A DNA stretch of 64,000 bases from Candidatus Doudnabacteria bacterium (GTDB lineage Bacteria; Patescibacteriota; Doudnabacteria; UBA920): NCBI GenBank assembly GCA_963768175.1, contig CAVYGQ010000001.1, forward strand, positions 5,908-69,907. Reading direction: 5' to 3'. The notes below the pieces were generated by a model, which saw only the letters and a program-made list of their open reading frames with translations, did not search any database and was not told the origin of the DNA. Positions 1 through 54,670 of the stretch are shown piece by piece (positions within the stretch are counted from its first letter, which is position 1; each line of letters starts with the position of its first letter). A program made the translations under genes and the position numbers.

Positions 1-1
1 T

Positions 2-5500: not shown

Positions 5501-8082
5501 TTAAAGCCAGTTCCACCAGCGTTACGGCCGCGGGCGCGACCCAGCCAAATTTGGTAGGCGCGGTCTTTTTGGGAATTGGCGATACCGCGGTGGCCTCTTC
5601 CACGCCGCCGAACAACGGCATCGTTTTTACTAATTGTACAAACCTTGCCTGTACCGCGACTTCCAGCAACTGGACCGGTATGGTCATAACCGCCGGCACT
5701 GTCAATACGGTTTCCTGTCCCGCCATAACTTTGGGCAAAATGGCTTTGCTGCGCTTTGAAGTCGCGTCTACTTCCAAGGTTAACTTTTTTGCGCAAAACA
5801 ACGTGGCTAACGGTCCTTACGAAACTTTCTGCGGCAGTGTTAACGCGGCTCTGCCCAACGTCAACATGACCGTGATGATGGAAGACAGCAGCACAGGCAC
5901 AAATAAAACCATATTGGATTTGGATTACTTCCGCGCCTGGCAGGACGATACTCCGCTGAATCCCGCCAATAATCCTCCCTCTGCCTACCAGGCCGCCTCT
6001 GCCGTGCCTGACTTAGTTACTTATGCGGCTTTAAGCCAGCGCTATCCGTCGTCCGGTGATATTCCCGACGGCTCCTTAGTCAGCTGGAATACTTCCACCT
6101 CCACGCCCTCAGTTGGGCTTTCATCCGTCCCTTATGACCAGCATATTTTGGGCGTAACCGTGCCTGAAGGCTCCATGAGCATAAACGATATGTCCGGAGG
6201 CGGAGCAGAAGTGGCGATTTCCGGCCGCGCCAGTTTGCAGGTTAGTTCGGAAAACGGCGGCATAGAGCCGGGCGACTACCTAACCTCTTCCGATATCCCC
6301 GGAGTCGCCATGAAAGCCATTAAAGCCGGCTTGGTGATTGGCAGGGCGTTAACCGAGTTTGCCGCCAGCGGTACTGGCAGCGTGGCGGTCCAAATCAGCC
6401 CCACTTACTTCTTTGGCGACTTAAATTCCCTTGCGGGCATAACCCAAGGGACGGGCAACGCCTTCTCCCAAAACCTGCTGACTTCATTGCAGGGCCAGAG
6501 CCAGCAGCTTTTGGCTTCCGCTACCGGCAGTTTGTCGCAAATCTACACCGACCGCGTAGCCGCCCTGCAGGTGGTAACGCCGCAATTAGTCAGCAACAGC
6601 TTAATGGTCAACAGCATCCAATCGGCGAGTAGTTCCGACTTAAGCATTTTGCTCGGCCAGAATAACCGTTTGGCGATTTTAGCCACCGGCACGCCGCAGG
6701 CCGGCTCCGGGCAAATTGTGCTAAGCGTAAATGCTTCCGGTAATCTGGTTACCTCCGGCACATTGGTGGTCAAAAACGGCCGGAACGTTTCGCAAATGTA
6801 TCCGGTTATAGACCAAAGCCTGGAGCCGGGCGATATTGTGGCTTTGGCTACCAGCACGATGGCTTCCGGCTCGCCCATTAGCGGCTTGGTCAAGGCTTCC
6901 AGCTCCACGCCCGATGTCTTGGGTGTTATTGCCAGTGAGCCGGGCTTAGTCCTGTCGGGCAGGACCGCCAGTTCCTTGCCGGTGTCGCTAATCGGCCAGG
7001 ACATAGTTAAGGTTTCTTTGGAAAACGGTAAGATTGAACCGGGCGACTACTTAACACTGTCCGCCATTTTGCCGGGCTACGCCATGAAGGCCGTTTATTC
7101 CGGCAATGTCATTGGGCGGGCCATGGCCGCCGCGACCGGCACTCCGGCAACATCCACAACCACCCTGCTTAGTTCCATCCAGTACGGCTGGCAGAACATT
7201 AATAATACTTTTGTACTTGGTGCCAATGACGGCCAACTGGCAAACGCGACTTCCACCTTTATGGTTTTGAGCTCGGCTTCTTCCACCGCCGCCACCATGT
7301 TGGTCAATCAAATGGGCAGCGGCGGTTTGTTACAGCTCCAGCAAAACGGTGAGGACAGATTGTTAATTGCCAATGACGGCAGCGTGAATATTTTGGCCAG
7401 TACCACCCTTGCCACTTCTACCGTATTGAGCGTGAAAGATTCCACTAGCACGCTGTTTTCCATAAACGCCCGTGGCGACGCGGCAGTGGCGGGAATAATA
7501 GTAATTAAAAACGATACGTTTGCTGGAAGCATTGCTACTGATATCAACGGGGAAGCTCAAATTATGTTTAGCTACGATGTAGGCACGGGCAAGCCGGTGG
7601 TTCAGCTAACGCCGGAAGCGGAAGTTCCGGTATTTGCTCAAGTTTTATCCTGGAGCAAAGATTCCAACCAAAATTATACAGGTTTTACTATTAAAACCTT
7701 CGGTCTGTCCGGCGCGCCGGTTTCCGCCATTGTCCACTATTTGGTGGTAGGGAAAGAAGATGGCTATCAAACTCAAGGCCAGGTTTTGCAGGTTACGCAG
7801 GCTTCGTCCGTAAATCAAGCCACAAATTCCGGACAGGTTGACCTTCAACCGGATTCGGAATCTTCAACCTCTACTGCGCCAAGCGACGCCAGTGCTTCTT
7901 CTACTTTTTCAACTACCTTGGCAACTTCGTCCGATTCGTCAATTCAGACTGCTTCGCTGGCCGCGGCTCCGGCCGCACAATCCGCCGCGGCCGCTCCTTC
8001 GTCCACTGATGATACCGCCGCCTCTGCCCCGGATACCGTTGGACAATCCGCCGCGGCTGACAACGCATCGCCAACAAATTAA
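2488..8082 (+). CDS. Giant repeat protein, C-terminal portion. It has more NGNVGIG repeats, a CBM4/9-like carbohydrate-binding module (around 3640-4150), a duplicated 'ENGxIEPGDYLT...GxVIGRA' module (around 6240-6360 and 7020-7130) and a Ser/Thr/Ala-rich C-terminal tail.
   Basis: 1864-aa ORF. Frame 1 is already open from 2311, and the protein-like translation switches from frame 2 to frame 1 around 2470-2510. The NPGFE..GW..YxxS motif is typical of a CBM. Confidence 0.6.
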   Translation: MGAGGQFNAIYIPLANSGTATGTIIGLNISSITGGSATETAISIGSGWDSYLNIATISTTTLINIQGTAGRDTLNISSSTGASMFYITNGARIGINSSTPAATLSVQGAAVANPLLIASSTGTVLMAILQNGNVGIGSASPITTLALTGTVGTNPLVVASSTGTQLLTILQNSNVGISSATPVATLSLQGTSGTNALFIASSTGTGLMIIQQNGNVGIGSSSPSTSLAIQGVAGSSDLFNIASSSGISVLRITATQRVGIGSTSPIATLAIQGTSTSPTLDVLDIASSTGAILFNVLANGKVGIGTSSPAQTLTLQGTSGTDLLNIASSTGASIMYIMQNGNVGIGTTTPAATLNVLGTGIFQSTTNTPTAFQVQNASGTPILLVDTTPTFGATTTNYIANPGFEVNTSGWAASGTGATIARVTTNKYMGLASLKIDSYGSGAGQGASTTVFTMSPTAGTYVLSFYARTDISSSSFSTLMAGYSTSTQFSACTLNSNTVSNLGWRRYNCSFTVSGPITQIFIGQSDANPNRTFYIDSIQLQLGSAPTPYAIGNIQLRGVITSPVSLQSLSNSVTAFQIQDQTGVSNLFIADTLNNAIDIGTSTGTSVLNIQGVAGSTNGLVSISSSTGASLMYLGANGKVGFGSSTPNATMVVEGATNLPTSDILRVASSSNAVFLNVTAAGNVGIGTTTPATALSVVGSITSTVLAGTANGIVYVDATGKLINTVSPQNLGVNQCLVSNNGGTPAWTTCTSINSTTTIWSSLANPTAALTVNMGSNTTNFTYGNTTGSGVNLFTFNDSANNTGTGSLFTLSSNTGSALNPFQVLVSSTTPALVVTAGGFAGFGTTTPTSALYILNSTTSLFSIASTVGSSLFDIRNIGVTFGAAGYAGAFVSKNSYFGEEYSQFHSLVLTVTTAGKGGTSQVRGQSSTLTANTAGNGTMTFNTNITATPGGCTATSTNALNGIETVIASSTVSTSASCMETVTTNASATLLSMFNPNNLPVVEIKASSTSVTAAGATQPNLVGAVFLGIGDTAVASSTPPNNGIVFTNCTNLACTATSSNWTGMVITAGTVNTVSCPAITLGKMALLRFEVASTSKVNFFAQNNVANGPYETFCGSVNAALPNVNMTVMMEDSSTGTNKTILDLDYFRAWQDDTPLNPANNPPSAYQAASAVPDLVTYAALSQRYPSSGDIPDGSLVSWNTSTSTPSVGLSSVPYDQHILGVTVPEGSMSINDMSGGGAEVAISGRASLQVSSENGGIEPGDYLTSSDIPGVAMKAIKAGLVIGRALTEFAASGTGSVAVQISPTYFFGDLNSLAGITQGTGNAFSQNLLTSLQGQSQQLLASATGSLSQIYTDRVAALQVVTPQLVSNSLMVNSIQSASSSDLSILLGQNNRLAILATGTPQAGSGQIVLSVNASGNLVTSGTLVVKNGRNVSQMYPVIDQSLEPGDIVALATSTMASGSPISGLVKASSSTPDVLGVIASEPGLVLSGRTASSLPVSLIGQDIVKVSLENGKIEPGDYLTLSAILPGYAMKAVYSGNVIGRAMAAATGTPATSTTTLLSSIQYGWQNINNTFVLGANDGQLANATSTFMVLSSASSTAATMLVNQMGSGGLLQLQQNGEDRLLIANDGSVNILASTTLATSTVLSVKDSTSTLFSINARGDAAVAGIIVIKNDTFAGSIATDINGEAQIMFSYDVGTGKPVVQLTPEAEVPVFAQVLSWSKDSNQNYTGFTIKTFGLSGAPVSAIVHYLVVGKEDGYQTQGQVLQVTQASSVNQATNSGQVDLQPDSESSTSTAPSDASASSTFSTTLATSSDSSIQTASLAAAPAAQSAAAAPSSTDDTAASAPDTVGQSAAADNASPTN

Positions 8083-8449
8083 CCTGGTCAAAAAAATCGT
8101 CTTTTTTCCCTTGCTGGGGCGCATCAATATTTTTAAAAACAGCCCTCCAACCCGAGAGGGATCAAAACCGGCCCTCTGGTGGAAGTCTTCAAAAAGCCTT
8201 ATAATATTCCTAAACGGCCATTACGCCACCGAGGTGGTACTATAAAAGAGTTCCCAAAAATCCAACCAAGATTTTTATAAGGGATTTTTGGGATAGAGGG
8301 GCAACAACGAATTGAGCGAAAGTTTTATTCGCGACGTAGAGCGAGTGAAAGTATATGCCTCCGGCAGATACTTTCCGAGCCGAGGAGCTAATGCAGGCTT
8401 AGGCCGTTATTCTAATAAAATTTAAACGAAAACGAGTTTATTGCGGCGA

Positions 8450-8742
8450 GGTTCCGTAGCTCAATGGATACCCGCCCGACTCGCCTGACGAGGCCTCGTA
8501 GCTCAATGGATAGAGCCGCGCTCTTCTAAGGCGCTGATGTAGGTTCGATTCCTACCGAGGTCACCAGACGAGTCAGGCGGGCGGGGAGCAGTGTTCTTCT
8601 AAGGCATTGATGTTGGCTTGCCTCGCACCAATTTCCTTAGTTGTTCTTGATGTGTAATATTATTATTGCAGAAAAAAATATTCATTCAATAAGAGTTGGT
8701 TAGGGGAATTGGTGCGGGGTGAGATTCCAACCGGGACCGCCA
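8450..8742 (+). pseudogene. Degenerate tRNA-Arg(TCT)-like gene interrupted by two insertions. An IR-flanked cassette holding the intact tRNA-Arg sits in the D-region, and a ~100-nt hairpin element sits in the T-loop.
   Basis: 8450-8470 matches the tRNA 5' part at 19 of 21 positions (GGTTCCGTAGCTCAATGGATA). 8583-8615 matches the D-stem 3' strand plus a wobble-paired TCT anticodon arm. 8616-8742 gives a T-stem GTTGG/CCAAC, acceptor 3' strand CGGGACC, G and CCA. The first insert is bounded by the imperfect inverted repeat cccgcccg..gcctgacg / cgtcaggc..gggcgggg. Confidence 0.4.
8492..8566 (+). tRNA. tRNA-Arg (anticodon TCT)
   Basis: Cloverleaf readable by eye: acceptor GGCCTCG/CGAGGTC, D-arm GCTC-AATGGATA-GAGC, anticodon loop CTTCTAA, T-arm GTAGG-TTCGATT-CCTAC, discriminator A and an encoded CCA. 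Confidence 0.85.
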
Positions 8743-8935
8743 TGAATTTAAAAGTCTTTCAGGTGTATAACTTTACTTGACACTAAATAACAAAAGGGTT
8801 AAATAGAAGGGGGGAGGGGGGAAAGGAGACCTTAAGACCTAAGATTTTTTAATAACAAATTTTATTAAATAGTCTCATATTTTAGCCTGATCATGGAGTT
8901 TAAATTTTTGATTTAAAATCCTACATTGGGAGGAG

Positions 8936-9121
8936 GTGATAAATATGCAGAATTTTCACATGTATATGTGCGATGGCTGCGGCTATTCCCGCGAAAAACC
9001 CGGAATCTGTCCATATTGCCAGGCTCCATTGACGGTTTATAGCAAGGAAGACCAGGCGGAGTATCTGGTGGATATGGAAGAAGCTATGCGCACAATGAGC
9101 GAGTATAAGTGGTATGTGTGA
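8936..9121 (+). CDS. Small zinc-ribbon (rubredoxin-like CxxCG...CPxC) protein, 61 aa
   Basis: Strong RBS GGGAGGAGGTGA upstream, a TTGACA-17-TAAATA promoter near 8767-8800, and the motifs MCDGCGY...CPYCQ. Confidence 0.5.
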   Translation: MINMQNFHMYMCDGCGYSREKPGICPYCQAPLTVYSKEDQAEYLVDMEEAMRTMSEYKWYV

Positions 9122-9170
9122 ATAACAAATAATTAATAATTGATAACAGAAAACATGTTATACAGCAGTT

Positions 9171-9202
9171 AAAACCCCGCATTAAACGATGCGGGGTTTT
9201 GT
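9171..9202. terminator. Bidirectional rho-independent terminator hairpin (AAAACCCCGC-attaaacgat-GCGGGGTTTT)
   Basis: GC stem flanked by A- and T-runs, between convergent genes. Confidence 0.6.
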
Positions 9203-9215
9203 TATGGGTTATAAA

Positions 9216-10291
9216 TTATTTGTTATTAGTTTTTCCGTGGTATTTCCTATGGATTTCCCTTAACCCTTGGTCGGTAACGTGGGTATAAATTTGCGTAGTG
9301 GTTATGCTGGAGTGTCCTAGCAGGGTTTGGACTGAGCGGATGTCGGCGCCATTTTGCAAAAGATCAGTGGCAAAGCTATGGCGCAATGTATGGGGCGTGA
9401 CTTTTTTTACAATTCCGGCCAAGCGGCAATATTTTTTTATAATCCTTTGGATTTGGCGGGGAGTGAGCCCGGACTGATTTGAGATTTCGGGTTTCTGGCT
9501 TGAAGATTTAAAACCTTGGGAGGCTATTTCTTTTTCCATTCTTTTTTGTCTGGCATCGACGGATTTCTTGTCGGTCTTTTCGGGTTTATCGGAAACTTTG
9601 CCAATTGTGGAATGGCCAATAAATAAAGCTTTGCTGTTGTCCTTTCTTTTGGCCAAATACTTTTTTAAGTCCTGGGCGGCTTCGTCGCTCAAAAATACCA
9701 GGCGCAATTTGCTGCCTTTGCCACGGACGGTAAATTCCCTTCTTTCCAAATTAATGGAGTCGCGTTTGAGCCCGGCGACTTCGGAAACGCGCAAGCCGGT
9801 GGAAAAGAGCGTTTGCAAAATTGCGGCATCCCTTAAGCGGGGAAGCTCTTGTTTTTCCTGGGCGGTGGCGGCGAATAGCCGTTGCAACTCCTCTTTCCCC
9901 AAAAATTCCACTTGCCTTTGGGGATTTTTTGGCAGCTCAATTTTTTCCGGACTTAAAGTTTTTACGTCATTCTTCATCAAGTATTTTAAGAATGCCCGGA
10001 GCGCGATTAAATGGTAGTTTTGCGTAATCAGTTTAAGAGTGCCGCCCTTGTCGTTTTCCAGCCTGTTTAAATAAAGCCGGTATTTGTTTACCGTCTGTAA
10101 AGTGATATCTTTTGGATCTTTCACCCCCAAGCTTGCCGCAAAACGCAAAAATTTAATTAAGTACCTGTAGTAAGCCGCTACAGTGTTAGGGCTTTGATTT
10201 TTTGCAATCTCGGAATACTCCAAAAAGTCGTTAACATAGGTCTGTAGGGGAGTAAGCTGAACCGGGCTTTTTTTAGGTTGATTTTCCATGT
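9216..10291 (-). CDS. xerD: Tyrosine site-specific recombinase/integrase (XerC/XerD family) with an internal K/S-rich insertion
   Basis: N-terminal SAM-like core-binding region, and C-terminal R...HTLRHSFAT...LLGHSSITTTQIYTHV catalytic motifs. Start placed at MENQPKK, because the upstream ORF extension is non-coding repeat DNA. Confidence 0.85.
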
Positions 10292-10486
10292 TTTTAAGAC
10301 CGATATTGCGCGATGTTGAAAATGTTGCGCAATATTGGTGCAATATGCGACATTTGTAATGTAGCATATTGTTACATTGCGCGACATGATAGTTATCCAC
10401 AATACCCACAGCGGTTATTACGACAATGACAATTATCCCCAAAGATAAATGCGTTACGCGACGCGTGACTATCAGGTAACCCTTTT

Positions 10487-10610: not shown

Positions 10611-11489
10611 ATGATCTTAGTTATCTCATCTAAAAAAGTTTACGCTGCGAAAAGGCTGGCATGGGAAGCAGGCATTAGGAATCAAGAATTGCGGATTATG
10701 GATATGCAGGATTTGATTACCTGTAATTTTCAGATTGATCCAAACAAGTTTGATGCCCTGTACATCCGCGATCCTTATTTAAAAGACAGTCCAAAATACA
10801 CTCCGCAAATCGTCAAACTTGCAAAAAAATTTAAAGCCGCGGGCAAAAAGGTTGTTGATTCCGCGATTGCCGACGGGGAACTCGGCCAAGGCAAATGGGC
10901 GGATTATCAGAGGCTTCAAAAAGCCGGCTTGCCAATTCCAAAGACCGGTTTATTGTCTGACTACCCACTACCCACTATTCACTACCCACTAATTCTCAAA
11001 TGGACCTACGGCTTTAAGGCAAAAAATGTTTTTCTGATAAAAAACCAGCAACAGCTAAAAAATATCCTGCCCCTGCATCTCAAAAAAGAATGGCTGGTTC
11101 AGGAATTTATTAAAGCGGATTATGAATATAAAGTTATTACCGTCGGATACAAAGCATTGCCGGTGGTGTTGAGGTTTTCCACCAGAGGCGGATCCGCCTC
11201 TGGTGGAAAGATTAAAGACAACGGTTTTAGGACGGATTTCAAATCCGCATGCAGCGTGCCCATTTATGGGCGATCCAGACAGCCGATGAATCGGCACGCT
11301 ACCATTGTTAAATTTGCCGAAAGGGCATCGAAAATCTTAAACCGCGAACTGGCCAAAGTTGACATTTTGGAAGCCAAAGGCAAATTCTATATTCTGGAAG
11401 TTAACCGCTTCCCCGGCCTTAAGAGTTTTGAACAATTGACAGGCTATAATGTCTTTAAGGATTTTTTTAAATATCTTGTTTTAAAATGA
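10611..11489 (+). CDS. ATP-grasp family protein (RimK-like ligase)
   Basis: EWLVQEFI...YEYKVITVG ATP-grasp core. Carries the in-frame palindrome insert at 11178-11208 encoding GGSASGG. Confidence 0.65.
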   Translation: MILVISSKKVYAAKRLAWEAGIRNQELRIMDMQDLITCNFQIDPNKFDALYIRDPYLKDSPKYTPQIVKLAKKFKAAGKKVVDSAIADGELGQGKWADYQRLQKAGLPIPKTGLLSDYPLPTIHYPLILKWTYGFKAKNVFLIKNQQQLKNILPLHLKKEWLVQEFIKADYEYKVITVGYKALPVVLRFSTRGGSASGGKIKDNGFRTDFKSACSVPIYGRSRQPMNRHATIVKFAERASKILNRELAKVDILEAKGKFYILEVNRFPGLKSFEQLTGYNVFKDFFKYLVLK

Positions 11490-14817: not shown

Positions 14818-15006
14818 ATGATAAAATTTATGGGGACACAACCAGGGGTAGGAAATCCGGAGGCTGGGGGCTTTCATCCGGAATATATGGATCAACCGGT
14901 AGAAATTACTATGAAAGGTCCTGATGGGGTCAGATCTTTTAGATCGGTCAAGGAAATGTTAGATACTTTGAAGGAAGAAAATGCAAACAGGGATAGATGG
15001 AATTGA
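14818..15006 (+). CDS. Small hypothetical protein (62 aa)
   Basis: ORF only, with a weak RBS. Confidence 0.25.
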   Translation: MIKFMGTQPGVGNPEAGGFHPEYMDQPVEITMKGPDGVRSFRSVKEMLDTLKEENANRDRWN

Positions 15007-15089
15007 TTAAAAACAGCTCCGGTGACTCCGCCAGCCCCGACGTAACGTCGGGGCCAATTGGCGGACCGGAGCTGTTTTGGTATAATATT

Positions 15090-15175
15090 GTCATCCGGGC
15101 GTCATCCTGAGGCCGAAGGCCGAAGGATCTCAATAAAGAGATTCTTCGCCGCCAAAGGCGGCTCAGAATGACGCC
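15090..15175. repeat. MITE-like element, GGCGTCATCCTGA family (copy 2), immediately 5' of tgt
   Basis: gtcatccgggcgtcatcctgagg...gctcagaatgacgcc. The ORF-track ATG at 15168 lies inside its terminal repeat. Confidence 0.7.
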
Positions 15176-15185
15176 GTTATGTTTT

Positions 15186-16514
15186 ATGGCGTATTTTGAT
15201 TTAATAAAAAAAGTTTCGTCTGATAACGCGCCAACAGGCAGAGGTGTCCCCTCTGGAAGAGGGGACACCTCTGCCGCCAGAATCGGGATAATCCACACCG
15301 CGCACGGGGACGTAAAAACGCCGGCGTTTTTGCCTATTGGCACCAAAGGCACGGTTAAATCGGTCACCTCGGAAGAACTTAAGTTTTGGGGCGCGGATAT
15401 GATACTGGCCAATACCTATCATTTGTGGCAGCGTCCGGGCGACGGGCTTATTTATAAAGCTGGCGGCCTGCATAAATTTATGAACTGGAAAGGGCCGATT
15501 TTTACCGACAGCGGTGGGTTTCAGGTTTTTTCTTTGGCCAAAATGCGCAAGGTCATGGAAGCTGGCGTGTTGTTCCAGTTTGATCTGGACGGCAGGCAGG
15601 AAATTTTGTCGCCGGAAAAATCCGTGCAAATACAGGCCAACTTAGGCAGCGACATTGCTTTAATTTTGGACGATTTTCCGGGGTATCCATTTGAGTACGA
15701 GCGATCAAAAGAATCTATTGCGCAAACCAAGCGCTGGGCCGAGCGTGCGCAAAAAGAATATCAAAAAATAATGACGACCATATCCGCCGGAGGCGGATCC
15801 GCCTTTGGCGGAAATCCCGGGCAGAAATTGTGGGGGATTGTGCAGGGAGCTTCGTTTCCCGATTTGCGCAAACAGTCGGCAAACGATATGGCTAAGTTAG
15901 GATTTGAAGGATTTGCCATTGGCGGAGTGGCCGTGGGGGAGCCGCACGAAGAAATGATGAAAGCCGTGGAAGCATCCGTGCCTTTTTTGCCGGAATCCGC
16001 GCCAAAACATCTGTTGGGCGTGGGTACCCCTTTTGACATTGTGCAGGCAGTAAGCCGCGGCTGTGACACTTTTGATTGCGTTATCCCAACGAGGGAAGCG
16101 CGCCATGGTAGGCTTTATGTGTCCGCAAAAATCCACCCCTCTCTAACCCTCCCCCTCAAGGGGAGGGAAATTAAAGGAAAGCCAGGCGGTGTTGTTCCTC
16201 CCCCTGGAGGGGGGAGGCTAGGTGGGGGTGATGAATCTGTTGAAGGTTACTCAACAATTGACATCCGGCTTGAAAAATACAAAGAAGATTTTACGACAAT
16301 AGACAATACTTGCGATTGTTATTTATGCTTAAATCATACCAGATCTTATCTTCGCCACCTGTTTGCCGGCGGCGAGCCGTTGGCTATCCGTTTAGCTACC
16401 ATGCATAATCTGCGTTTTTATTTAAACTTGATGGCCAAAATCCGTAAAGCCATAGAATATGATTATTTTAACGAGATGGCGGAAAATTACAAAGATTATA
16501 CTAATATGGTATAA
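15186..16514 (+). CDS. tgt: Queuine tRNA-ribosyltransferase (tRNA-guanine transglycosylase), carrying in-frame palindromic inserts
   Basis: GIIHTAHGDVKTPAFLPIGTKGTVK and the zinc subdomain CDCYLC...H. In-frame inserts at 15238-15273, 15784-15811 and ~16135-16230. Confidence 0.85.
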   Translation: MAYFDLIKKVSSDNAPTGRGVPSGRGDTSAARIGIIHTAHGDVKTPAFLPIGTKGTVKSVTSEELKFWGADMILANTYHLWQRPGDGLIYKAGGLHKFMNWKGPIFTDSGGFQVFSLAKMRKVMEAGVLFQFDLDGRQEILSPEKSVQIQANLGSDIALILDDFPGYPFEYERSKESIAQTKRWAERAQKEYQKIMTTISAGGGSAFGGNPGQKLWGIVQGASFPDLRKQSANDMAKLGFEGFAIGGVAVGEPHEEMMKAVEASVPFLPESAPKHLLGVGTPFDIVQAVSRGCDTFDCVIPTREARHGRLYVSAKIHPSLTLPLKGREIKGKPGGVVPPPGGGRLGGGDESVEGYSTIDIRLEKYKEDFTTIDNTCDCYLCLNHTRSYLRHLFAGGEPLAIRLATMHNLRFYLNLMAKIRKAIEYDYFNEMAENYKDYTNMV

Positions 16515-16677
16515 TAAGTAAAATTATGAGGCAGTAATGTTGCATCACAATGGGCACCATTGTGTTGCACAATGGTGCCCATTGTATGGATCAACGATGA
16601 CAGAAAAAAATGATTTATCCAACTCCGCCACCCGCCGTCGCCAAGGCTATGGTGGACAAGAGGCTACGTCGGACAAG

Positions 16678-18095
16678 ATGGAAAAAATAGTATCTTTGTG
16701 CAAAAGGCGCGGGTTCATTTTTCCGGGCTCGGAAATTTACGGCGGGTTTGCCAACTCCTGGGATTACGGACCCGTAGGGGTGGAATTAAAAAATAATATT
16801 AAGCAGCTTTGGTGGGAGCGGTTCGTGCACCAGCGGGACGATATGGTCGGCATAGACGCGGCTTTGATAATGAAGCCGGTGGTCTGGGAAGCCAGCGGGC
16901 ATTTAAAAAATTTTTCTGATCCTTTGATAGAATGTAAAAAATGCCATAACAGATTTAAACCTGATCAGCTAGAGGGTATAAAACAAATTGAGAATTTGCC
17001 TGGGGAGTATCCTGCAGGTAAAAATGTCCATTCTGGTTTGGGATCAGGCGTGAGCATCGTTGGAGAAGATAATAAAAGAATTTTTATAAGCGAAAATACT
17101 AAATGCCCCACTTGTGGACAAAAATTTGAATTGAGCGATAAGCCTAAACAATTTAACTTAATGTTTAGAACCCATATCGGCCCTGTAGAATCTGATGAAA
17201 ACATCGTCTATTTCCGTCCGGAAACCGCGCAAGGGATGTTCGTACAATTTAAAAATGTTTTGGACACCAGCCGCAAAACCGTTCCGTTTGGAATTGCGCA
17301 GGTCGGTAAGGCTTTCCGCAACGAAATTACGCCTGGCAATTTTATTTTCCGCACGCGCGAGTTTGAACAAATGGAAATAGAGTATTTTATCCCGGTGCCA
17401 AAGTTGACCAAGACTGGAATAAGTATTTTGAAGATTGGCGGAAGCAGATGCTTTCCTGGATTAAAGATGATCTTGGTATTAAACTGAACCATATCCACGA
17501 GCTGGAAGTGCCGGAAAATGAGCGCGCGCATTACAGCAAACGAACCATTGATTTTGAATATGATTTTCCTTTTGGAAAATCGGAGTTGTATGGGTTGGCT
17601 TATCGCGGCGATTTTGATTTGGCGAACCATCAAAGAATGTCAGGCCAATCTTTGGAATATACCGACCCGCAGACCAACGAAAAATATCTGCCGCACGTAA
17701 TAGAGCCGACTTGGGGCGTGGACAGGAGCGTTTTGGCGGTTTTGTGCGAGTTTTATCGCGAGGAAGAAGACCGCGTGGTTTTGGCTTTGCCGCCAAAATT
17801 GGCTCCTTATAAAGTCGCGGTTTTTCCGCTTTTAAAGAACAAGCCGGAGCTTGTCGCTAAAGCAAAATCAATTTACGATGAATTGCGGAAATCTTTTGCT
17901 ACGGCCTGGGACGAGCGCGGCAATGTGGGCAAGCGTTATTATAGCCAGGACGAAATCGGCACGCCGTTTTGCGTTACCGTGGATTTTGACAGCTTGGAAG
18001 ATGGTATGGTAACCGTCCGCAACCGCGACAGCAAAGAACAGCCGAGGGTGAAGATTGAGGAATTGAAAAATTATTTGTTGGATAAAACCTTTTAA
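16678..18095 (+). CDS. glyQS: Glycyl-tRNA synthetase (alpha2 type), split over two frames by an apparent 1-nt indel near 17395-17405
   Basis: The 16537..17487 and 17448..18095 ORFs together give a complete GlyRS. Frame 1 (…EIEYFIPVPK) joins frame 0 (VDQDWNKYFEDWRKQM...). Start placed at MEKIVSLCKRRGF. Confidence 0.85.
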
Positions 18096-18097
18096 AG

Positions 18098-18400
18098 ATG
18101 GCAGAACGTTTTTCTTACCAAGAAAGTATGAGTTTTGAGCAACAAGCTATTGTTGCTAGATTAGAAAATTTGTGGGGTAGCGTAGAAGATGCTACAGCAA
18201 AATCATTCCCTCATATGTCGGAAGATGATCTTCCATATAATTATCAGCAAGATTATAAGACAATTAAGCATGAAATGTTGGAGATAATTAAGAAGATGAA
18301 ATCGGATCGGAATTATATACCTAGCGAGGAAACTACGCTTAACGATATTAGAATGCAGGTATTGGAATTTTTGGAAAGAGATGAATCAAAGAAATATTAA
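18098..18400 (+). CDS. Hypothetical protein
   Basis: 100-aa ORF with no recognisable domain. Confidence 0.35.
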   Translation: MAERFSYQESMSFEQQAIVARLENLWGSVEDATAKSFPHMSEDDLPYNYQQDYKTIKHEMLEIIKKMKSDRNYIPSEETTLNDIRMQVLEFLERDESKKY

Positions 18401-19571
18401 AATTTTACAGGGTAAATTATTAAACCCTATTCTGATTAAGAAAAAAGAAAACCTGTTGTATTTAACAGGTCGTTCTTTTATGCAGGGGTATCTTTTGGTA
18501 AAACCCTCCCGGCGTCATTCTGAACGAAGTGAAGAATCTCAAAGGAAGAGATCCTTCGGCCGCCAAAGGCGGCCTCAGGATGACGCCGTTGTGTTTTTTG
18601 GGGACGGGCTGGAAAAAGCAGAAGGAATACATACTGACATACTTAAGAATGTAAGGATGTATTTAGGCAAACAGAAAGTGTTGGATTTGGAAGATGAGTT
18701 TACTTTTGCGGAATATAATTATATCAAGTGCAAGTTAAAAGATGCAAAGCGCAAGGTAAAACTACAGCATGTCAAAAGTCCCGTAGATTTTCAAAGAGCT
18801 TTAAAAGATGAGCAGGAAATCGCGTTTGTTAAGAAATCAATGCAAATAGTGGAAAGGGTCTTTGGTTTAGTGCGAAGGGAAATCAAGAAGCCAGGGATAA
18901 CGGAAATTAGGCTGGCAAATTTTATTAAATCGTCAGGATTAAAAATGGGCGCGCAGGACATTAGTTTTCCGCCGATTGTGGCAAGCGGTCAAAACGCCGC
19001 GGTGCCCCACCACGTTCCGTCTTCAAAGCGCTTAAAAGCAGGGGAATCTATAATTTTGGATTTTGGGTTTAAATATAAAAATTACTGCAGCGATTTTACC
19101 CGCACGGTTTTCTTAAAAAAAGTGCCGCCAAAACTGGAAATGGTTTATAATCAGGTGGAAAAGGCGTATAAAGAGTGCATGTCATTGCGAGGAGTGCAGC
19201 CGACGAAGCAATCTCATCAAAGAGACAAATTGCCGCGCCCCTCGGATGCACTCGGGGCTCGCAATGACAGACCTGTGACAGGTAACGAACTTTACCAAAA
19301 ATCAGTTTCTGTTTTAGCCGAAAAACATCTGGATAAATATTTTATCCATTCCTTGGGTCATGGCACCGGCCTGGAAATCCACGAATTGCCTAATTTATCG
19401 CCAAAATCCAAAGACATTCTGCAAGACGGCATGGTTTTTAGCATAGAACCTGGCGTTTATATCCCAAACCAAGGTGGCGTAAGAATAGAGGATTTGGTAT
19501 ATTTAAAAGGGAATAAAGTTAATAAGTTTATAGATATCTCAACGAAATTGGAGAGCAATATAATAAAATAA
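18381..19571 (+). CDS. M24 family metallopeptidase (Xaa-Pro aminopeptidase / PepP-like) with two in-frame mini-element insertions
   Basis: ISFPPIVASGQNAAVPHH...DFTRT...HSLGHGTGLEIHE...GGVRIEDLV metal-binding motifs. In-frame inserts at 18511-18587 and ~19196-19280. Confidence 0.8.
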   Translation: MNQRNIKILQGKLLNPILIKKKENLLYLTGRSFMQGYLLVKPSRRHSERSEESQRKRSFGRQRRPQDDAVVFFGDGLEKAEGIHTDILKNVRMYLGKQKVLDLEDEFTFAEYNYIKCKLKDAKRKVKLQHVKSPVDFQRALKDEQEIAFVKKSMQIVERVFGLVRREIKKPGITEIRLANFIKSSGLKMGAQDISFPPIVASGQNAAVPHHVPSSKRLKAGESIILDFGFKYKNYCSDFTRTVFLKKVPPKLEMVYNQVEKAYKECMSLRGVQPTKQSHQRDKLPRPSDALGARNDRPVTGNELYQKSVSVLAEKHLDKYFIHSLGHGTGLEIHELPNLSPKSKDILQDGMVFSIEPGVYIPNQGGVRIEDLVYLKGNKVNKFIDISTKLESNIIK

Positions 19572-19574
19572 TTT

Positions 19575-19871
19575 ATGGGCGAATTTGATGAAATAAAAAA
19601 GAGATTGTCTACCGGAGAAATGGAAACCTTACAGTTGCTATATAGTTTAGAAGAAGAACTAGACAAGCCGACTTTTAGGGTTCAATCGGATCCATGGAAG
19701 TCGGAGTGGTATAAATTAAAAGCTAATATTCAGAAAACCATTTTTTTGATAAACGGAAACCAAGAGCTGCCATTGGAATTGGGGAAAAGTGTGTTAGTAG
19801 AGAGAGCGGCAAAATTGCTTGCGCAAACACAAATAAATCCTAAAAATTTGCCTGACCCGGACAACCTATAA
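19575..19871 (+). CDS. Hypothetical protein
   Basis: ORF only. Confidence 0.35.
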   Translation: MGEFDEIKKRLSTGEMETLQLLYSLEEELDKPTFRVQSDPWKSEWYKLKANIQKTIFLINGNQELPLELGKSVLVERAAKLLAQTQINPKNLPDPDNL

Positions 19872-19882
19872 ATAAGGAAACT

Positions 19883-21178
19883 ATGAAATATAATAAAAAA
19901 GTTTTATCGAATGGCCTAACAATAATTGAAGTTCCTTCTAGCGACGCGGAAAGCGTGGTGGTGGATTTTTTTGTGAAGACCGGCTCGCGCAGCGAAACCG
20001 CCAAAGAAAACGGCATTTCCCATTTTTTGGAACATTTTTTATTCAAGGGCAGCAGAAAATATCCTTCGGCCATGGCTATTTCGGAGGTTGTAGATGCCAT
20101 TGGCGGGGAAATGAACGCCAATACTGGCAAGGAATATACCCAGTTTTATATTAAAGCGGCCAGCAAACATTTGCCGCTGATTTTTGGAATTCTTACGGAC
20201 ATGATCCAGAATCCTCTTTTGGACAAAGAGGAAATGAAACGCGAGAAGGGCGTGATTATGGAAGAAATCAATATGTACAAAGACATGCCTATGGTGGAAA
20301 TAGACAACGTGCTGGAACGAACTATGTGGCCGAAAGATGCCTTAGGTCGCGATATTGCCGGCACCAAGAAAATCGTGGCCAAATTTAGCCGCCAAATGTT
20401 CGCAGATTATATTAATAGGCATTATCAGACGCCAAATATACTTTTGGGAGTTTCGGGTAAATATAATGCCAAGCAATTAAGTCAGCTAATCCAAAAATAT
20501 TGGCAATCTAGGAAGAGGACTGTCCTTTTTAAAAAGGACAGTCCTCACTGGATTCGCGTTAAAGACAAACAATCCACCCCGCGGATAAAAATAGATTACA
20601 AAGATACCAAACAAGCGCATTTGGCTTTGGGTTTTAAGGGCTTTGCTTATGGTGACAGCCGCAATTCTGCGGTGTCGGTTTTGGCCGCCGTTTTGGGCGG
20701 CGGGATGTCCAGCCGCCTATTTACGGAAGTGCGGGAAAAGCGCGGCTTGGGCTATTATGTGCGCTCAAGCCAGGGAAACTATCAGGATACCGGCAGCTTT
20801 ACCGTAAGCGCGGGCGTGCAGGTGGATAAAATTACGGAGGCGCTAAAAGTTATTTTAGTTGAATTAAAAAAGATTAAAGGCACTCCCGTTGGGGAAAAAG
20901 AAATCCAAAAAGCCAAAGAATACATAAAAGGCAAAACCGTTTTGGCATTGGAAGACAACCAAGTCAGGCTGGACTGGTTTTTGGAGCGCACGGCGTTTTA
21001 TAAAAAAATAGAAATTCCGGAAGAAGTTTTTAAGCGCATAGACGCGGTATCGGCAAAAGACATTGCCAAAGTCGCAAAACAATTATTCGTTAATAAAGGA
21101 ATGACATTGGCAATAATTGGTCCATATAAAACTGATAGAAATTTTAGGAGAAATTTAAATGTTGAAAGTAAAAAATAG
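19883..21178 (+). CDS. M16 family zinc peptidase (insulinase/PqqL-like)
   Basis: HFLEHFLFKGS HxxEH zinc-binding motif, 431 aa. Confidence 0.85.
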   Translation: MKYNKKVLSNGLTIIEVPSSDAESVVVDFFVKTGSRSETAKENGISHFLEHFLFKGSRKYPSAMAISEVVDAIGGEMNANTGKEYTQFYIKAASKHLPLIFGILTDMIQNPLLDKEEMKREKGVIMEEINMYKDMPMVEIDNVLERTMWPKDALGRDIAGTKKIVAKFSRQMFADYINRHYQTPNILLGVSGKYNAKQLSQLIQKYWQSRKRTVLFKKDSPHWIRVKDKQSTPRIKIDYKDTKQAHLALGFKGFAYGDSRNSAVSVLAAVLGGGMSSRLFTEVREKRGLGYYVRSSQGNYQDTGSFTVSAGVQVDKITEALKVILVELKKIKGTPVGEKEIQKAKEYIKGKTVLALEDNQVRLDWFLERTAFYKKIEIPEEVFKRIDAVSAKDIAKVAKQLFVNKGMTLAIIGPYKTDRNFRRNLNVESKK

Positions 21179-22104
21179 CTTGCTGATTGGCTGCCATGTT
21201 TCCTCCGCCGAGGGGGTGTTTAATGCGCCAAAAAACGCGGCAGATTTAGGCTGCGAAACCTTCCAGATTTTTACGCGGCCGCCTATGGGAGGCAAGGCGC
21301 CGGAGCTGACGGATGAGATTGCCAGGCGGTTTAAAGAGGAAATGGAAAAGTATTTTGACAGAGGTGTCCCCTCTGCTGCAGAGGGGACACCTCTGTTCGT
21401 GGTCCACTGCCCGTATTTTGTTAATTTCGGATCCAAGAGCCCGCATTTACCACGGTTCAATTTCGGTCGTGGGCGAGGAGTTAAAAAGAGCCAATATGCT
21501 TGGCGCAAAATATGTAATGACGCATTTGGGCAGCGGCAAGGATCTTGGCCAAACAGCTGCCCTTCATCAGGCTAAAGAAGGTTTAACGGAAGTCTTAAAA
21601 AAGTATGAGGGCCAAACCCAATTCTTGCTGGAAATTGCCGCCGGGGTAGGCGAAACGCTTGGCGGGACTTTTGAGCAATTGGCCGAACTGATGGGGCCAC
21701 TGGTAAAATTTAAAACTTTCGGCGGAATTTGCTTTGATACCCAGCATGCTTTTGCCAGCGGTTACGATTTGCGCGACGGCGCGGCCGTAGCGGAAACTTT
21801 TAAAAAATTTGATAAAACAATCGGCCTTAGATGGCTAAAAATGAGCCATATTAACGATTCCAAAATAGAGTTGGGCGGCAAAAAAGACCGCCACGAACAC
21901 ATCGGAGACGGGAAAATCGGGGAGAAGGGATTTGGGGCGCTTTTGGCTTATTTAAGCACCCTCTCTGCCACCCTTCGGGTGGCATCTTCTCCAAAGGGGG
22001 AGAAAGATAATGTGCTCCGCGCTTTACCCTTGATTTTGGAAACCGAGCATGATAAAGTAGAGGCAGATATTAAAATTTTGAAAAGTATAAGAGACAAAAT
22101 TTAA
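21159..22104 (+). CDS. nfo: Endonuclease IV (AP endonuclease), split by an apparent 1-nt indel near 21455-21470. Carries two in-frame palindrome inserts.
   Basis: The 21159..21575 ORF (…HCPYFVNFGSKSPHL) and the 21313..22104 ORF (SISVVGEELKRANMLGAKYVMTHLGS...) together match Endo IV. Inserts at 21359-21395 and ~21958-22010. Confidence 0.8.
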
Positions 22105-26760: not shown

Positions 26761-26861
26761 TAATTGATTGCTATTATGCAAAAGTATAATCACAAAAAAA
26801 TAGAGGCCAAGTGGCCCTCCTTCGTCCGCCTTTGGCGGACTTCGGAGGGTAAACAAAAGAT

Positions 26862-29822
26862 ATGAATAAATATAATTTTAGTAAGATCGAAAAAAAATGG
26901 CAGTCTTATTGGTCAAAGAAAAAAATTTTTTTGGCCAAGGATTTTAGCAAAAAGCCCAAGAAATATATCTTGGTGGAATTTCCGTATCCCAGCGGCGCGG
27001 GGCTTCATATGGGGCATTTAAGGCCTTATGTGGCGGCCGATGTTTATACCAGATACAGCAGAATGAAGGGTTACGAGACTTTGTTTCCCATCGGCTGGGA
27101 CGCATTTGGCTTGCCCGCGGAAAATTACGCCATTAAAATGGGCGTGCATCCCTCCAAGACTACGGCGCAAAACGTTAAGAATGCCAAGAAGCAAATGCAG
27201 TCTTGGGCGCTTTCTTTTGACTGGAGCCGCGAAATTAATACCACGGACCCGAATTATTATAAATGGACTCAGTGGCTGTTTTTGCAATTTTACAAAAAGG
27301 GTTTGGCTTACGAAGCCACGGGTTTGATTAACTGGTGCCCTAAAGATAAAACCGGTTTGGCCAATGAAGAAGTGATCGATGGAAAATGTGAGCGTTGCAG
27401 CACGACCGTGGAAAAAAAAGAATTGCGCCAGTGGTATTTAAAAATTACCGCCTACGCGGAAAAATTATTGGAAGGACTTAAAAATTTGCCCGACTGGCCG
27501 GAACCGGTCAAGCTCCAGCAGGAGAATTGGATTGGCAAAAGCGTGGGCGCGGAAATAGATTTTATGCTTGTCCAGCCGCTGGTCAAGAGGTTTGTAATTC
27601 TACACGGGAGGGACGGCTCATCACGTAAAAATTTTACCCCTTGGCTCAAAAAAGAACTTGAGTTGCGCGGATTTGAAGTTCAGGCCCCAGATATGCCAAG
27701 TCCGGATATGCCGAATGATGTTCAGCAGGCCGAATTTGTTAAAAATAATTGTAAGTTAGACGAGCAAACCGTTATCATTGGCCATTCTTTTGGCGGGGTG
27801 GTAGCGTTGCGTCTTTTGGAGCAGGGAATTAAAGTTAACCGGACGGTTTTAGTATCAACCCCTTATAGCGGGAAGTTTTTGGACGGCAAGGAGAGGCCGA
27901 CTGTTGCCGCGGCGGTAAAAAAAGGTTTTGATTTTGGGTTCATTAAAAAACAAAAAGCATGTTTTAGCCTTTTGTATGATTTGGGCGATTATGTGGTGCC
28001 GATGTCCGATGGCGAGGAATTTGAGAAGCATACCGGCTTTGGGGTATTAAAAGCCAAAGCTCAGCAGCCGCATTTTAGTGCCAACGAGGAACCGGAAGTG
28101 CTGTCGGTAGCTTTAGGAGCCGTAAGAGTTTTTACCACCAGGCCGGATACGATTTTTGGAGCCACTTATTTGGTATTGGCGCCGGAGCATCCGGTGGCTC
28201 GCGCCACTGCCATGCAGGTCTCCAATTCCGCGGAGGTTTTAAAATATATTGAAGAGGCAAAAAATAAGACAGACATCCAGCGTTCGGCGACTGAAAAAGA
28301 CAAAACAGGCGTGGAGTTAAAGGGTGCGTTCGCGATTAATCCGGCCACCAAAGAAAAAATTTCTATTTGGGTGGCGGATTATGTGCTTTGGGTCTATGGC
28401 ACGGGTGCGATTATGGCCGTGCCCGCGCATGATGAAAGGGATTATGCATTTGCTAAGAAATATCAGCTGCCAATCAAGAGGGTCGTGGTTCCTAAAGGGT
28501 ATTTCGCAAAAGACGACTTTTATACAGGACCTGGCATACTTAAAGATTCGGATGATTTTAGTAATTTAGACTCTGAAGTTGCTATTCCTAAAATGGCAAA
28601 GGAGTTTGGCAAACCGGCCACACAATATAAACTGCGCGATTGGGTATTTTCCAGGCAAAGATATTGGGGCGAGCCGATCCCAATTATCCATTGTCCGAAG
28701 TGCGGGATTGTGCCCGTGCCGGACAAGGACTTGCCGGTAAAGCTTCCGCCGGTTAAAAATTATCAGCCGACCGGGACCGGGGAGTCGCCTTTGGCGGCAG
28801 TCAGCAAATGGGTAAATGTTAAATGTCCGGCCTGCAAATCTTCAGCTAAAAGGGAAACTAATACCATGCCAAATTGGGCAGGGTCATCGTGGTATTGGCT
28901 AAGGTATACCGACCCCAGAGATAAAAAATCTTTTGCCGATTTGCAAAAGCAAAAATACTGGACGCCGGTGGACGTGTATTTTGGCGGAATGGAGCACACC
29001 ACCTTGCATTTACTTTACTCAAGATTTTGGAATTTGTTTTTGTATGATCAAAAGTTGGTAACGTCGCGCGAGCCATACGCCTTGCGCAAGCCGCACGGCA
29101 TTATTTTAGGGCCGGACGGCGAGAAAATGTCCAAGAGCCGCGGCAATGTGGTCAATCCGGACGATATAGTCAAATCTTACGGTGCAGATACTTTAAGGAT
29201 GTATGAAATGTTTTTGGGCCCGCACGAAGATGCCATAGCCTGGAACGGCGAGAGCGTGATTGGCGTGAAGCGGTTTTTGGATAGGGTGTGGAATTGGGTA
29301 AGCGAAGTTGCGGGTGGCAAGTTGTTGGTCGAAAGTGATTCGGAAAAGGTTGCCCGTGCTTTAAATAAGCTGATAAAAAAAATTACCGAAGACATTGAAA
29401 ATTTCCATTTTAATACGGCCATTTCGGCGTTTATGGAATTCCATAATGAGGTTAAAGATGAGCCAATATCTGTGGAATCCATCAAAACATTTTTAAAATT
29501 ACTCTATCCGTTCGCGCCGTATATTTCGGAAGAACTAAATCAGCTTGTTGGCAAAACGCGCGGCCGCGCAAAAAGTCAACAATCCTTGCAGCTGGAAAAC
29601 TGGCCGGCTTTTGACCCGTCAAAAATTGTTGATGCCACTGTGGAAATTGTCGTGCAGATTAACGGCCGTGTTAAAGCCAAGCTGGCCGTGGATGCCGGCA
29701 GCAGTCAGCAACAAGTAAGCGCTAAAGCACAGGAGCTGAATGTAGTTAAGCAGGCTTTAATGAACAAAAGTATCAAGCGAATAATTTTTGTGCCAGGCAG
29801 GCTGATAAATTTTGTTATATAA
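26862..29822 (+). CDS. leuS: Leucyl-tRNA synthetase, carrying an internal ~185-aa YdeN/RBBP9-like alpha/beta serine-hydrolase domain insertion (about 27568-28126)
   Basis: HMGH and KMSKS class I motifs and a full-length LeuRS. Between ...IGKSVGAEIDF and RVFTTRPDTIFGATY lies FVILHGRDGSSRKNFTPWLKKEL...IIGHSFGG..., which resembles YdeN (VYIIHGY..FPWLKKRL.., GHSLG). Confidence 0.9.
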   Translation: MNKYNFSKIEKKWQSYWSKKKIFLAKDFSKKPKKYILVEFPYPSGAGLHMGHLRPYVAADVYTRYSRMKGYETLFPIGWDAFGLPAENYAIKMGVHPSKTTAQNVKNAKKQMQSWALSFDWSREINTTDPNYYKWTQWLFLQFYKKGLAYEATGLINWCPKDKTGLANEEVIDGKCERCSTTVEKKELRQWYLKITAYAEKLLEGLKNLPDWPEPVKLQQENWIGKSVGAEIDFMLVQPLVKRFVILHGRDGSSRKNFTPWLKKELELRGFEVQAPDMPSPDMPNDVQQAEFVKNNCKLDEQTVIIGHSFGGVVALRLLEQGIKVNRTVLVSTPYSGKFLDGKERPTVAAAVKKGFDFGFIKKQKACFSLLYDLGDYVVPMSDGEEFEKHTGFGVLKAKAQQPHFSANEEPEVLSVALGAVRVFTTRPDTIFGATYLVLAPEHPVARATAMQVSNSAEVLKYIEEAKNKTDIQRSATEKDKTGVELKGAFAINPATKEKISIWVADYVLWVYGTGAIMAVPAHDERDYAFAKKYQLPIKRVVVPKGYFAKDDFYTGPGILKDSDDFSNLDSEVAIPKMAKEFGKPATQYKLRDWVFSRQRYWGEPIPIIHCPKCGIVPVPDKDLPVKLPPVKNYQPTGTGESPLAAVSKWVNVKCPACKSSAKRETNTMPNWAGSSWYWLRYTDPRDKKSFADLQKQKYWTPVDVYFGGMEHTTLHLLYSRFWNLFLYDQKLVTSREPYALRKPHGIILGPDGEKMSKSRGNVVNPDDIVKSYGADTLRMYEMFLGPHEDAIAWNGESVIGVKRFLDRVWNWVSEVAGGKLLVESDSEKVARALNKLIKKITEDIENFHFNTAISAFMEFHNEVKDEPISVESIKTFLKLLYPFAPYISEELNQLVGKTRGRAKSQQSLQLENWPAFDPSKIVDATVEIVVQINGRVKAKLAVDAGSSQQQVSAKAQELNVVKQALMNKSIKRIIFVPGRLINFVI

Positions 29823-33925: not shown

Positions 33926-33933
33926 AACAAAAC

Positions 33934-33965
33934 TTCTTAAAACCGCGGCCGCGGTTTTAAGAAGT
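33934..33965. terminator. Palindromic terminator CTTCTTAAAACCGCGGCCGCGGTTTTAAGAAG (the same core recurs at 51216-51247)
   Basis: Perfect GC-rich palindrome flanked by A- and T-runs. Confidence 0.6.
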
Positions 33966-40708: not shown

Positions 40709-40725
40709 TCATCAGATATTCCAAT

Positions 40726-40760
40726 AAGGGGCATCCTTTTGTTGCAAAAGGATGCCCCTT
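40726..40760. terminator. Bidirectional terminator AAGGGGCATCCTTTT-gttgc-AAAAGGATGCCCCTT (the same palindrome core recurs at 56093-56140)
   Basis: Perfect 15-bp inverted repeat between convergent genes. Confidence 0.6.
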
Positions 40761-40765
40761 ATTCT

Positions 40766-46843: not shown

Positions 46844-46868
46844 AAGGGCGGCCTACGGCCGCCCTTTT
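46844..46868 (+). terminator. Terminator AAGGGCGGCC-tac-GGCCGCCCTTTT after fusA
   Basis: Seen directly in the sequence. Confidence 0.6.
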
Positions 46869-47139
46869 ATATAGTTGTCATTGCGAGGAGCCTCGAGTGC
46901 ATCCGAGAGGCGACGAAGCAATCTTATTTTGTGTCATTCCGGAATTTTGCGGAGCAAAATATCCGGAATCTAGATTCCCGCTTTCGCGGGAATGACATGA
47001 ATATTCTGGAAAAAGAAAAAGCCCGCTGCGCCGTGGAGGTTCGCAGTAGGCAGTTGAGCCGCAGTTCCGTCGGAACCGCCGGGAGGCGGGTGGGGGAAAA
47101 GGGCGCGGATATGTGGCGACCACTCGGGCAGTGTCGGGG

Positions 47140-51112: not shown

Positions 51113-51148
51113 AAAGATAAACACGGACTGATAATGGATTAACACGAA

Positions 51149-54669: not shown

Positions 54670-54670
54670 A

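Follow-up and report, generated by a model that had tools for sequence, protein, structure and literature searches.

A short palindromic repeat translated in frame within tgt and nfo of a Candidatus Doudnabacteria genome

Comparison with described palindromic repeats

By analogy, the closest functional precedent for the repeat described here is the Rickettsia palindromic element (RPE). RPEs are palindromic repeats that lie in frame within housekeeping genes of Rickettsia and are compatible with the folds of the encoded proteins (Ogata et al. 2000; summaries in PMC10969869 and PMC1779305). Our subject is a perfect palindrome, 35-41 bp long in all copies compared, and there are two representatives in a 64,000-nucleotide stretch of Candidatus Doudnabacteria DNA (assembly GCA_963768175.1, contig CAVYGQ010000001.1, positions 5,908 to 69,907), which as a whole is called the window below. 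One copy is located inside the gene tgt and the other inside the gene nfo. Like an RPE, this element is a dispersed palindromic repeat that is in frame in unrelated housekeeping genes, is translated, and occupies a position tolerated by the protein fold. However, RPEs are about 100-150 bp in length and imperfect, have 44 copies in one genome and reside in an alpha-proteobacterial host, whereas the much shorter Doudnabacteria element is perfect, is low in copy number, has arms that are invariant at the nucleotide level, and bears no sequence relationship to RPEs.

REPINs are composed of two imperfect palindromes in inverted orientation, with a hairpin and a clover as alternative folds (PMC3116915), and the repetitive extragenic palindromic (REP) sequences carry GTAG/CGTC tags (PMC3733652). 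The Doudnabacteria element is similarly a doublet of inverted, short, imperfect palindromes that can be drawn as a long hairpin or a two-hairpin clover, the doublet is the unit, and there are no target-site duplications (TSDs). Nevertheless, REPINs are extragenic, whereas three of the four independent sites of this element are intragenic. REPINs are tagged and exist in tens to hundreds of copies, whereas this element is untagged, has a spacer of only 3-5 nt and is represented by few copies (two in the 64-kb window). In addition, REPINs come with a REP-flanked RAYT gene, and no RAYT gene was seen in the window, which covers 64 kb of a 949-kb contig.

MITEs (miniature transposable elements with inverted repeats) and terminator-like mobile repeats (e.g. 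SPRITE, PMC10969869) resemble the element in being short, non-coding, non-autonomous and hairpin-forming, and related families in the window genome sit at gene ends like terminators. However, the element lacks internal sequence between its 'terminal inverted repeats' and a known parent insertion sequence, and the window copies have no T-tail. Direct repeats were not found flanking the element at any site, and because there is no TSD it does not qualify as a MITE. A DNA uptake sequence would be expected to have hundreds to thousands of copies in a single orientation, whereas there are two copies in 64 kb and they are always complete palindromes.

G+C-rich clusters occur in the yeast mitochondrial gene var1. 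Perfect inverted repeats of up to 284 bp are found in coding genes of Nematomorpha mitochondria (PMC6649704). As with the Doudnabacteria element, these organelle examples include perfect inverted repeats that are translated with the gene, and GC-rich hairpins in a more AT-rich genome. Yet they are organellar, and the Nematomorpha repeats are gene-specific, without a single sequence common to several genes. The searchable literature yielded no description of such elements in the candidate phyla radiation (CPR) or Patescibacteria.

Architecture and dispersal of the element

The two window copies belong to one palindrome family whose 16-nt arms, CAGAGGTGTCCCCTCT and AGAGGGGACACCTCTG, are common to both, and the consensus of the repeat is GGCAGAGGTGTCCCCTCTGCWGCAGAGGGGACACCTCTGCC (Table 1). 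A preliminary description had placed near-perfect palindromes at 15238-15273 and 21359-21395; they are present, but each of these ranges is 1-2 nt too narrow. It had also held that the copies differ only in the loop. The centres do differ (GGA in tgt and GCTGC in nfo), but the outermost pairs differ as well. The ends of the element read GGCAGAGG...CCTCTGCC, and neither a GTAG nor a CGTC tag is present.

Each arm is an imperfect palindrome that forms a mini-hairpin of 6 bp and 5 nt with the pattern CAGAGG-N5-CCTCTG. The unit is therefore a REPIN-like doublet, because each arm forms a small hairpin of its own. The computed RNA energy of the long hairpin is -38.2 kcal/mol for the tgt copy and -35.8 kcal/mol for the nfo copy, and the alternative 'clover' of two short hairpins, evaluated on the nfo copy, comes to -18.3 kcal/mol. 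There are five matches to the inner-hairpin pattern in the window, against 0.05 expected, and nine matches to the 15-mer motif at three mismatches or fewer, against 0.67 expected. One such match, at 36818 with three mismatches, was ruled out as a family member, as it has no second arm and is found in another context.

The family has a narrow distribution and few copies, and in every case it is found as the complete doublet. When one genome per GTDB species was scanned for exact matches, the full palindrome turned up in only one metagenome-assembled genome (MAG), FK3.bin112. Exact matching over this whole MAG gave exactly two copies, one at the orthologous nfo site and one in polA (contig L001). 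A metagenome scan returned four more contigs, from Ga0182027 and Ga0182028, with the element at the orthologous tgt site (L003), in polA (L004), and in an intergenic spacer between convergent genes, the last at the same locus in both samples (L005 and L006). A third element-bearing nfo ortholog comes from a Logan assembly. The family thus occupies a total of four sites (tgt, nfo, polA and the intergenic spacer) in at least three or four genomes, and the unit has been copied into unrelated places.

The suggestion in the preliminary description that an in-frame palindrome family is dispersed among different genes, made from the two window copies, is upheld by this wider search, in which the tgt and nfo sites are filled in relatives and further copies lie in polA of two relatives and in the spacer. 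The nearest named homologs of the window Tgt are from Candidatus Doudnabacteria and Patescibacteria. There are no matches to the palindrome in viral contigs, plasmids or phages. Rfam at gathering thresholds reported three tRNAs only and no family match for the element. No candidate host protein emerged from a word-indexed protein search with the concatenated palindrome peptide, and a phmmer search with the antisense-frame 30-mer against 1.84 billion representatives gave only a spurious repeat protein, P0243.

Both window copies are translated in frame, as the earlier reading of the sequence had it, giving GRGVPSGRGDTSA within the tgt open reading frame (ORF) at 15168-16514 and RGVPSAAEGTPL within the N-terminal nfo ORF at 21159-21575. 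The element is free of stop codons in all six frames, and ORFs cross it on both strands. In all three independent intragenic insertions (tgt, nfo and polA) the host frame is kept and arm 1 is read R-G-V-P-S. The second arm of the tgt copy is read in another frame (RGDTS, not EGTPL) because its centre is 2 nt shorter. The chance that three events would all be in frame is about 0.04, and that all would be in the same frame about 0.11, values that are modest because there are only three events. The encoded peptide is rich in Gly, Pro, Ser and Ala and the stretch is stop-free and frame-preserving; with the peptide in a low-confidence loop or an interdomain linker, the host ORFs therefore stay open across the element. 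Excision of the element from the mRNA is unlikely, and read-through translation is favoured because every intragenic copy preserves the frame.

The palindrome is inside nfo, but in the window this gene is not a single intact ORF. Its frame is broken outside the element, where an Arg codon is 2 nt short relative to the related contigs L002 and L007. The nfo orthologs in L002 (305 aa) and L007 are intact.

Alignments with about 120 Tgt and about 120 Nfo homologs bear out the proposal that the peptides are insertions. The ancestral N-terminal turn of Tgt reads 'ILKK-DxxSK-ARxGVIHT', and the 21-residue version is found only in the window and in P0002, the product of the L003 gene. The ancestral Nfo reads 'EMEKY-QLD-VFVVHCPYFVNF', and FDRGVPSAAEGTPL is found only in the window, P0121 and P0122. 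The peptide is thus confined to the closest relatives in both proteins, and so it was inserted. The Tgt and Nfo sites have changed in net length by less or by more than the element's own length.

In AlphaFold2 models, the Tgt and Nfo peptides are located in surface loops of low confidence, with values of the predicted local distance difference test (pLDDT) below 50. The Tgt loop spans residues 10-31 (pLDDT below 50 at 18-26) and is at the tip of a beta-hairpin formed by strands 4-9 and 32-38. In the Nfo model (P0121, pLDDT 92.7), the element corresponds to loop 65-77, between helix 50-64 and strand 78-81. Judging from TIM-barrel topology, this loop would be on the barrel's alpha-to-beta side, which is away from the catalytic face. 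The polA copy is in the interdomain linker: on the query, the 5'-nuclease domain ends at residue 148 and the Klenow-like region starts at residue 179, with the element between them.

The flanks of the sites have no common target sequence beyond a weak ATGGTTTG(G) likeness at two sites and frequent GG beside the arms, and this GG is better read as part of the element. At L001 6058-6077 (polA of FK3.bin112) and L006 1776-1795 (intergenic), the palindrome is flanked by (G/C)ATGGTTTG(G), which could reflect an element that extends asymmetrically or a preferred target. An intrinsic terminator was rejected for the window copies, which are not flagged in a terminator scan and lack a T-tail; the intergenic copy in L006 alone has a T5 run, about 10 nt downstream.

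Table 1. Coordinates of the palindromic element, its host genes and other repeats in the window.
Feature	Position	Strand	Remarks
Palindrome copy 1 (39 nt)	15237-15275		Inside tgt; GGCAGAGGTGTCCCCTCT-GGA-AGAGGGGACACCTCTGCC; 18-bp perfect arms, 3-nt GGA loop
Arm 1 of copy 1	15239-15255		Mini-hairpin in itself, CAGAGG-TGTCC-CCTCTG
Arm 2 of copy 1	15257-15273		AAGAGG-GGACA-CCTCTG; arm 1 inverted
Palindrome copy 2 (39 nt)	21358-21396		Inside nfo; ACAGAGGTGTCCCCTCTGC-T-GCAGAGGGGACACCTCTGT; 19-bp perfect arms, centre T
tgt (tRNA-guanine transglycosylase)	15186-16514	+	PDB match 3.6e-97, alignment begins directly after the element
nfo (endonuclease IV)	21159-22104	+	Split into ORFs 21159-21575 and 21313-22104
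nfo frame break	21432-21440 (approximate)	+	About 40 nt downstream of the palindrome, outside the element
TCCGCCnnnGGCGGA doublets (30 nt)	11176-11209; 15780-15815; 30410-30445; 54436-54471		Tandem units; in frame in ATP-grasp, tgt, Sua5/TsaC and rplD genes
TCCGCCnnnGGCGGA singlets	26825-26839; 52958-52972; 62121-62135		
AGGACTGTCCT hairpins	20515-20546		Inside M16 peptidase gene, read RTVLFKKDSP; absent from the L002 ortholog
	51148-51180		After tuf, terminator-like
Other intergenic perfect palindromes	33932-33965 and 51214-51247; 40723-40763 and 56092-56143; 16547-16585		Families CTTAAAACCGCGGCCGCGGTTTTAAG, AAGGGGCATCCTT... and ACAATGGGCACCATTGTG...; most a 'hairpin within a hairpin'
48-nt insertion in C-terminal tgt	16182-16229		Relative to L003; CCAGGCGGTGTTGTTCCTCCCCCTGGAGGGGGGAGG..., read PGGVVPPPGGGRLGGG; within low-pLDDT segment, residues 322-348
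GIY-YIG ORF / repeat modules	46860-47000; 47899-48195; 18462-18632; 19194-19250; 14948-15160		Modules GTCATT...GGAATC / ...CGACGAAGCAATC
AT-rich inverted repeats (AAATGACAAAAA...)	54655-54768; 57760-57852; 61277-61362; 61578-61672		In spacers of ribosomal-protein genes

Invariance of the arms and competing explanations

In an alignment of nine sequences from the four sites, 32 of 32 arm positions are identical, synonymous sites included, and all variation is confined to the 3-5 unpaired nucleotides at the centre. The genes around the element have diverged by 15-30% while its sequence has stayed the same. For nfo in three genomes, 36-37 of 37 element positions match, against about 71-79% of the 119 nt upstream; at third codon positions the counts are 12-13 of 13 in the element, against 23/51, 31/51 and 30/51 (45-61%) in the flanks. 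The polA copies of L001 and L004 agree at 36 of 37 positions, and their flanks are unalignable (about 33%). Between the window and L003, the tgt element is identical at 35 of 35 positions, with 48-50 of 60 in the adjacent 60 nt and about 85% identity over the syntenic region.

Because conservation starts and stops exactly at the borders of the element, the flanks contain no conversion tract. Selection on the peptide is insufficient to account for the pattern because synonymous sites are identical too. Self-correction of the hairpin is likewise insufficient on its own, because the paired drift that it would allow is absent. The invariance of the arms suggests that something, for instance a mobilising protein or a host factor, still recognises them.

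With moderate confidence, we consider the tgt and nfo copies to be representatives of a tiny, dispersed, non-autonomous palindromic repeat of a narrow Candidatus Doudnabacteria clade, which would have been copied by a factor whose gene lies outside the window, with a folded single strand as intermediate, then filtered by selection for in-frame insertions in permissive loops, and later placed under sequence-specific constraint. The dispersal to unrelated loci points to mobility. As to the copying mechanism, the element may have spread by way of a single strand that folds either into the long hairpin or into the two 6-bp hairpins of the clover. Perhaps a nuclease or transposase encoded elsewhere acts in trans on this folded form without making TSDs. 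Selection would then discard every insertion that is out of frame or not in a permissive loop. Once an insertion is fixed, its arms would be held under a sequence-specific constraint at the nucleotide level, and the mobilising protein, or a host factor, might still recognise them.

Several observations weigh against this reading. No transposase, HUH/RAYT or Y1_Tnp protein is found among the 56 window ORFs scanned with Pfam; in this respect the scans yielded only a tyrosine recombinase, a DUF559 protein and a GIY-YIG protein. About 124 kb of related DNA contains neither single arms nor decayed copies, and no polymorphism between empty and filled sites was seen for this family. The two exact copies in the FK3.bin112 MAG look very few for a proliferating element. 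Furthermore, the age and unusual conservation of the copies at orthologous sites are not what one would predict of a selfish element that does nothing but decay, and their perfection over flank divergence of about 25-30% is unlike that of neutral relics of such an element.

In the main rival explanation, the palindrome would be primarily a functional cis-element that a conserved factor binds or processes in a sequence-specific manner, with the site in the form of either an RNA hairpin or a DNA cruciform. Such a factor might be an RNase III-type or other nuclease, a regulator or a nucleoid protein. At tgt, nfo, polA and the convergent-gene spacer the site would have been either placed or kept, and its translation would be a side effect that is tolerated. 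Arms that are fully invariant down to synonymous sites between flanks diverged by 15-30%, conservation bounded exactly by the borders of the element with variation only in the unpaired centre, and the low copy number all agree with such a role, as do the very stable hairpin (-36 to -38 kcal/mol) and the fact that nfo and polA are both DNA-repair genes. However, no uniform position relative to the genes is kept, with copies at +51 nt, at about +200 nt and at about +1 kb as well as an intergenic one; the window copies have no T-tail and are not flagged as terminators; and there is no Rfam match. Compensatory changes that would demonstrate a structural requirement are absent because the pairs never vary. 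The element is missing from most Doudnabacteria orthologs, so these genes do not need it, and the tgt site of L008, a close relative, is taken up by a different palindrome. We find it doubtful, though deserving of serious consideration, that a cis-acting role is the principal explanation. The mobile-repeat and cis-site readings are not exclusive, since a mobile origin could be compatible with maintenance by recognition.

A minor alternative is that there is no dedicated mobility system and that an existing hairpin, for example an intergenic palindrome of the terminator type, is copied into breaks at other loci when ectopic gene conversion or template switching accompanies replication or repair. 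This would suit the lack of TSDs, the lack of a transposase in the window and the low copy number. Some hairpin families are indeed found both between and inside genes (AGGACTGTCCT at 20515 and 51148, and the tgt/nfo family in the L006 spacer), and the net length change at the host sites does not equal the element, suggesting replacement over clean insertion. Nevertheless, no homology that might direct conversion is common to the flanks of the different loci, the borders are sharp and identical at four loci, and the long-term invariance of the sequence is left unexplained. We therefore regard this route as quite unlikely. Coincidence, convergent evolution or an assembly artefact is ruled out, as far less than one copy is expected by chance and the element recurs in NCBI, JGI, ENA and Logan assemblies.

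Other palindromes and consequences for the host lineage

The window is strikingly rich in hairpins. If perfect stems of 10 bp or more and loops of up to 6 nt are counted, there are 19, whereas Markov simulations give 0-1; five of them are inside coding sequence, and among the several recurring families the tgt/nfo family is only one. Other lineages have unrelated Pro/Gly-rich inserts at the same Tgt turn (18 of 116 homologs, about 16%) and at the same Nfo loop (roughly 30 of 120, counted from the alignment, or about 27% of the top homologs). Two of these inserts, from other Doudnabacteria lineages, were checked as DNA, and both are GC-rich palindromes. L008, whose Tgt is 86% identical, has a nested CCCTCCCCC[TCCGCC...GGCGGA]GGGGGAGGG at the Tgt turn (9903-10030), and L010 has CCCCTCACCCC...GGGGGTTAAGGGGG at the Nfo loop (codons around KYFPSPQPSPARGEGVKGV). 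The presence of different palindromes at the same loops in other lineages argues that colonisation of these loops is general and ongoing in the clade. Other palindrome families are also present in one and absent from the other of the window and the 85%-identical L003. This variation, like the different palindromes at the two loops, lends support to the mobile-repeat reading.

A second family is formed by tandem TCCGCCnnnGGCGGA units (Table 1). Its conserved fold is a pair of short hairpins, because the inner loops of the halves are often non-complementary. The tgt doublet is a clean 30-nt insertion relative to L003, and it has no TSD. The copy at 30410 is identical at 35 of 35 positions to a copy in the polA gene of L004, and L008 has one in pnp. 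The GIY-YIG nuclease ORF (Pfam 8.6e-17) is found about 0.9 kb downstream of repeat modules, and similar modules are translated in the M24 peptidase gene (HSERSEESQ, RPQDDA and PTKQSH), where they are partly absent from the L003 ortholog. That ortholog has, at L003 8131-8158, a GTAG-tagged perfect palindrome, GTAGCGGCACGCCGCGGCGTGCCGCTAC, which is absent from the window and carries the sole REP-like GTAG tag seen in the clade.

The housekeeping genes of the window are pnp, tgt, glyS, those for M24 and M16 peptidases, nfo, metG, leuS and glyA, and there is also a str/S10/spc ribosomal-protein region. A frameshift in glyS near 17400 (ORFs 16537-17487 and 17448-18095) goes back to the loss of 1 nt from an A-run, compared with L003; as the gene is essential, a sequencing or assembly error is likely here, whereas the nfo break may be either such an error or real. 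The leucyl-tRNA synthetase ORF (26862-29822) has weak alpha/beta-hydrolase matches at residues 243-342, inside the region of the catalytic domain. Positions 1-10442 are GC-richer (51-55% against about 45%) and include two ORFs of 829 and 1864 aa without Pfam matches, followed by a tRNA-Arg (8492-8566) and a tyrosine recombinase gene on the minus strand (9216-10442). This region may be an integrated element.

Tentatively, the picture can be widened. It is possible that Doudnabacteria, and perhaps CPR bacteria more generally, harbour undescribed ultra-short, stop-free palindromes that repeatedly colonise the same permissive enzyme loops. The tgt/nfo family might then be letter-perfect because a conserved protein recognises its folded arms, in a REPIN-RAYT-like partnership that operates within coding sequence and continuously remodels these loops.

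If the interpretation of the element as a mobile repeat is correct, streamlined CPR genomes with little intergenic space would accommodate repeats inside essential genes, and the inserts would yield lineage-specific disordered loops in otherwise highly conserved enzymes. Ortholog alignment, structure prediction and gene calling would be affected in these phyla, as exemplified by P0003, the start of which is called behind an insert. The element would also offer a natural system of 37 nucleotides that are subject at once to a coding constraint, a hairpin constraint and possibly recognition by a mobilising factor. The invariance at the nucleotide level makes the question of whether such a repeat is junk or functional directly testable.

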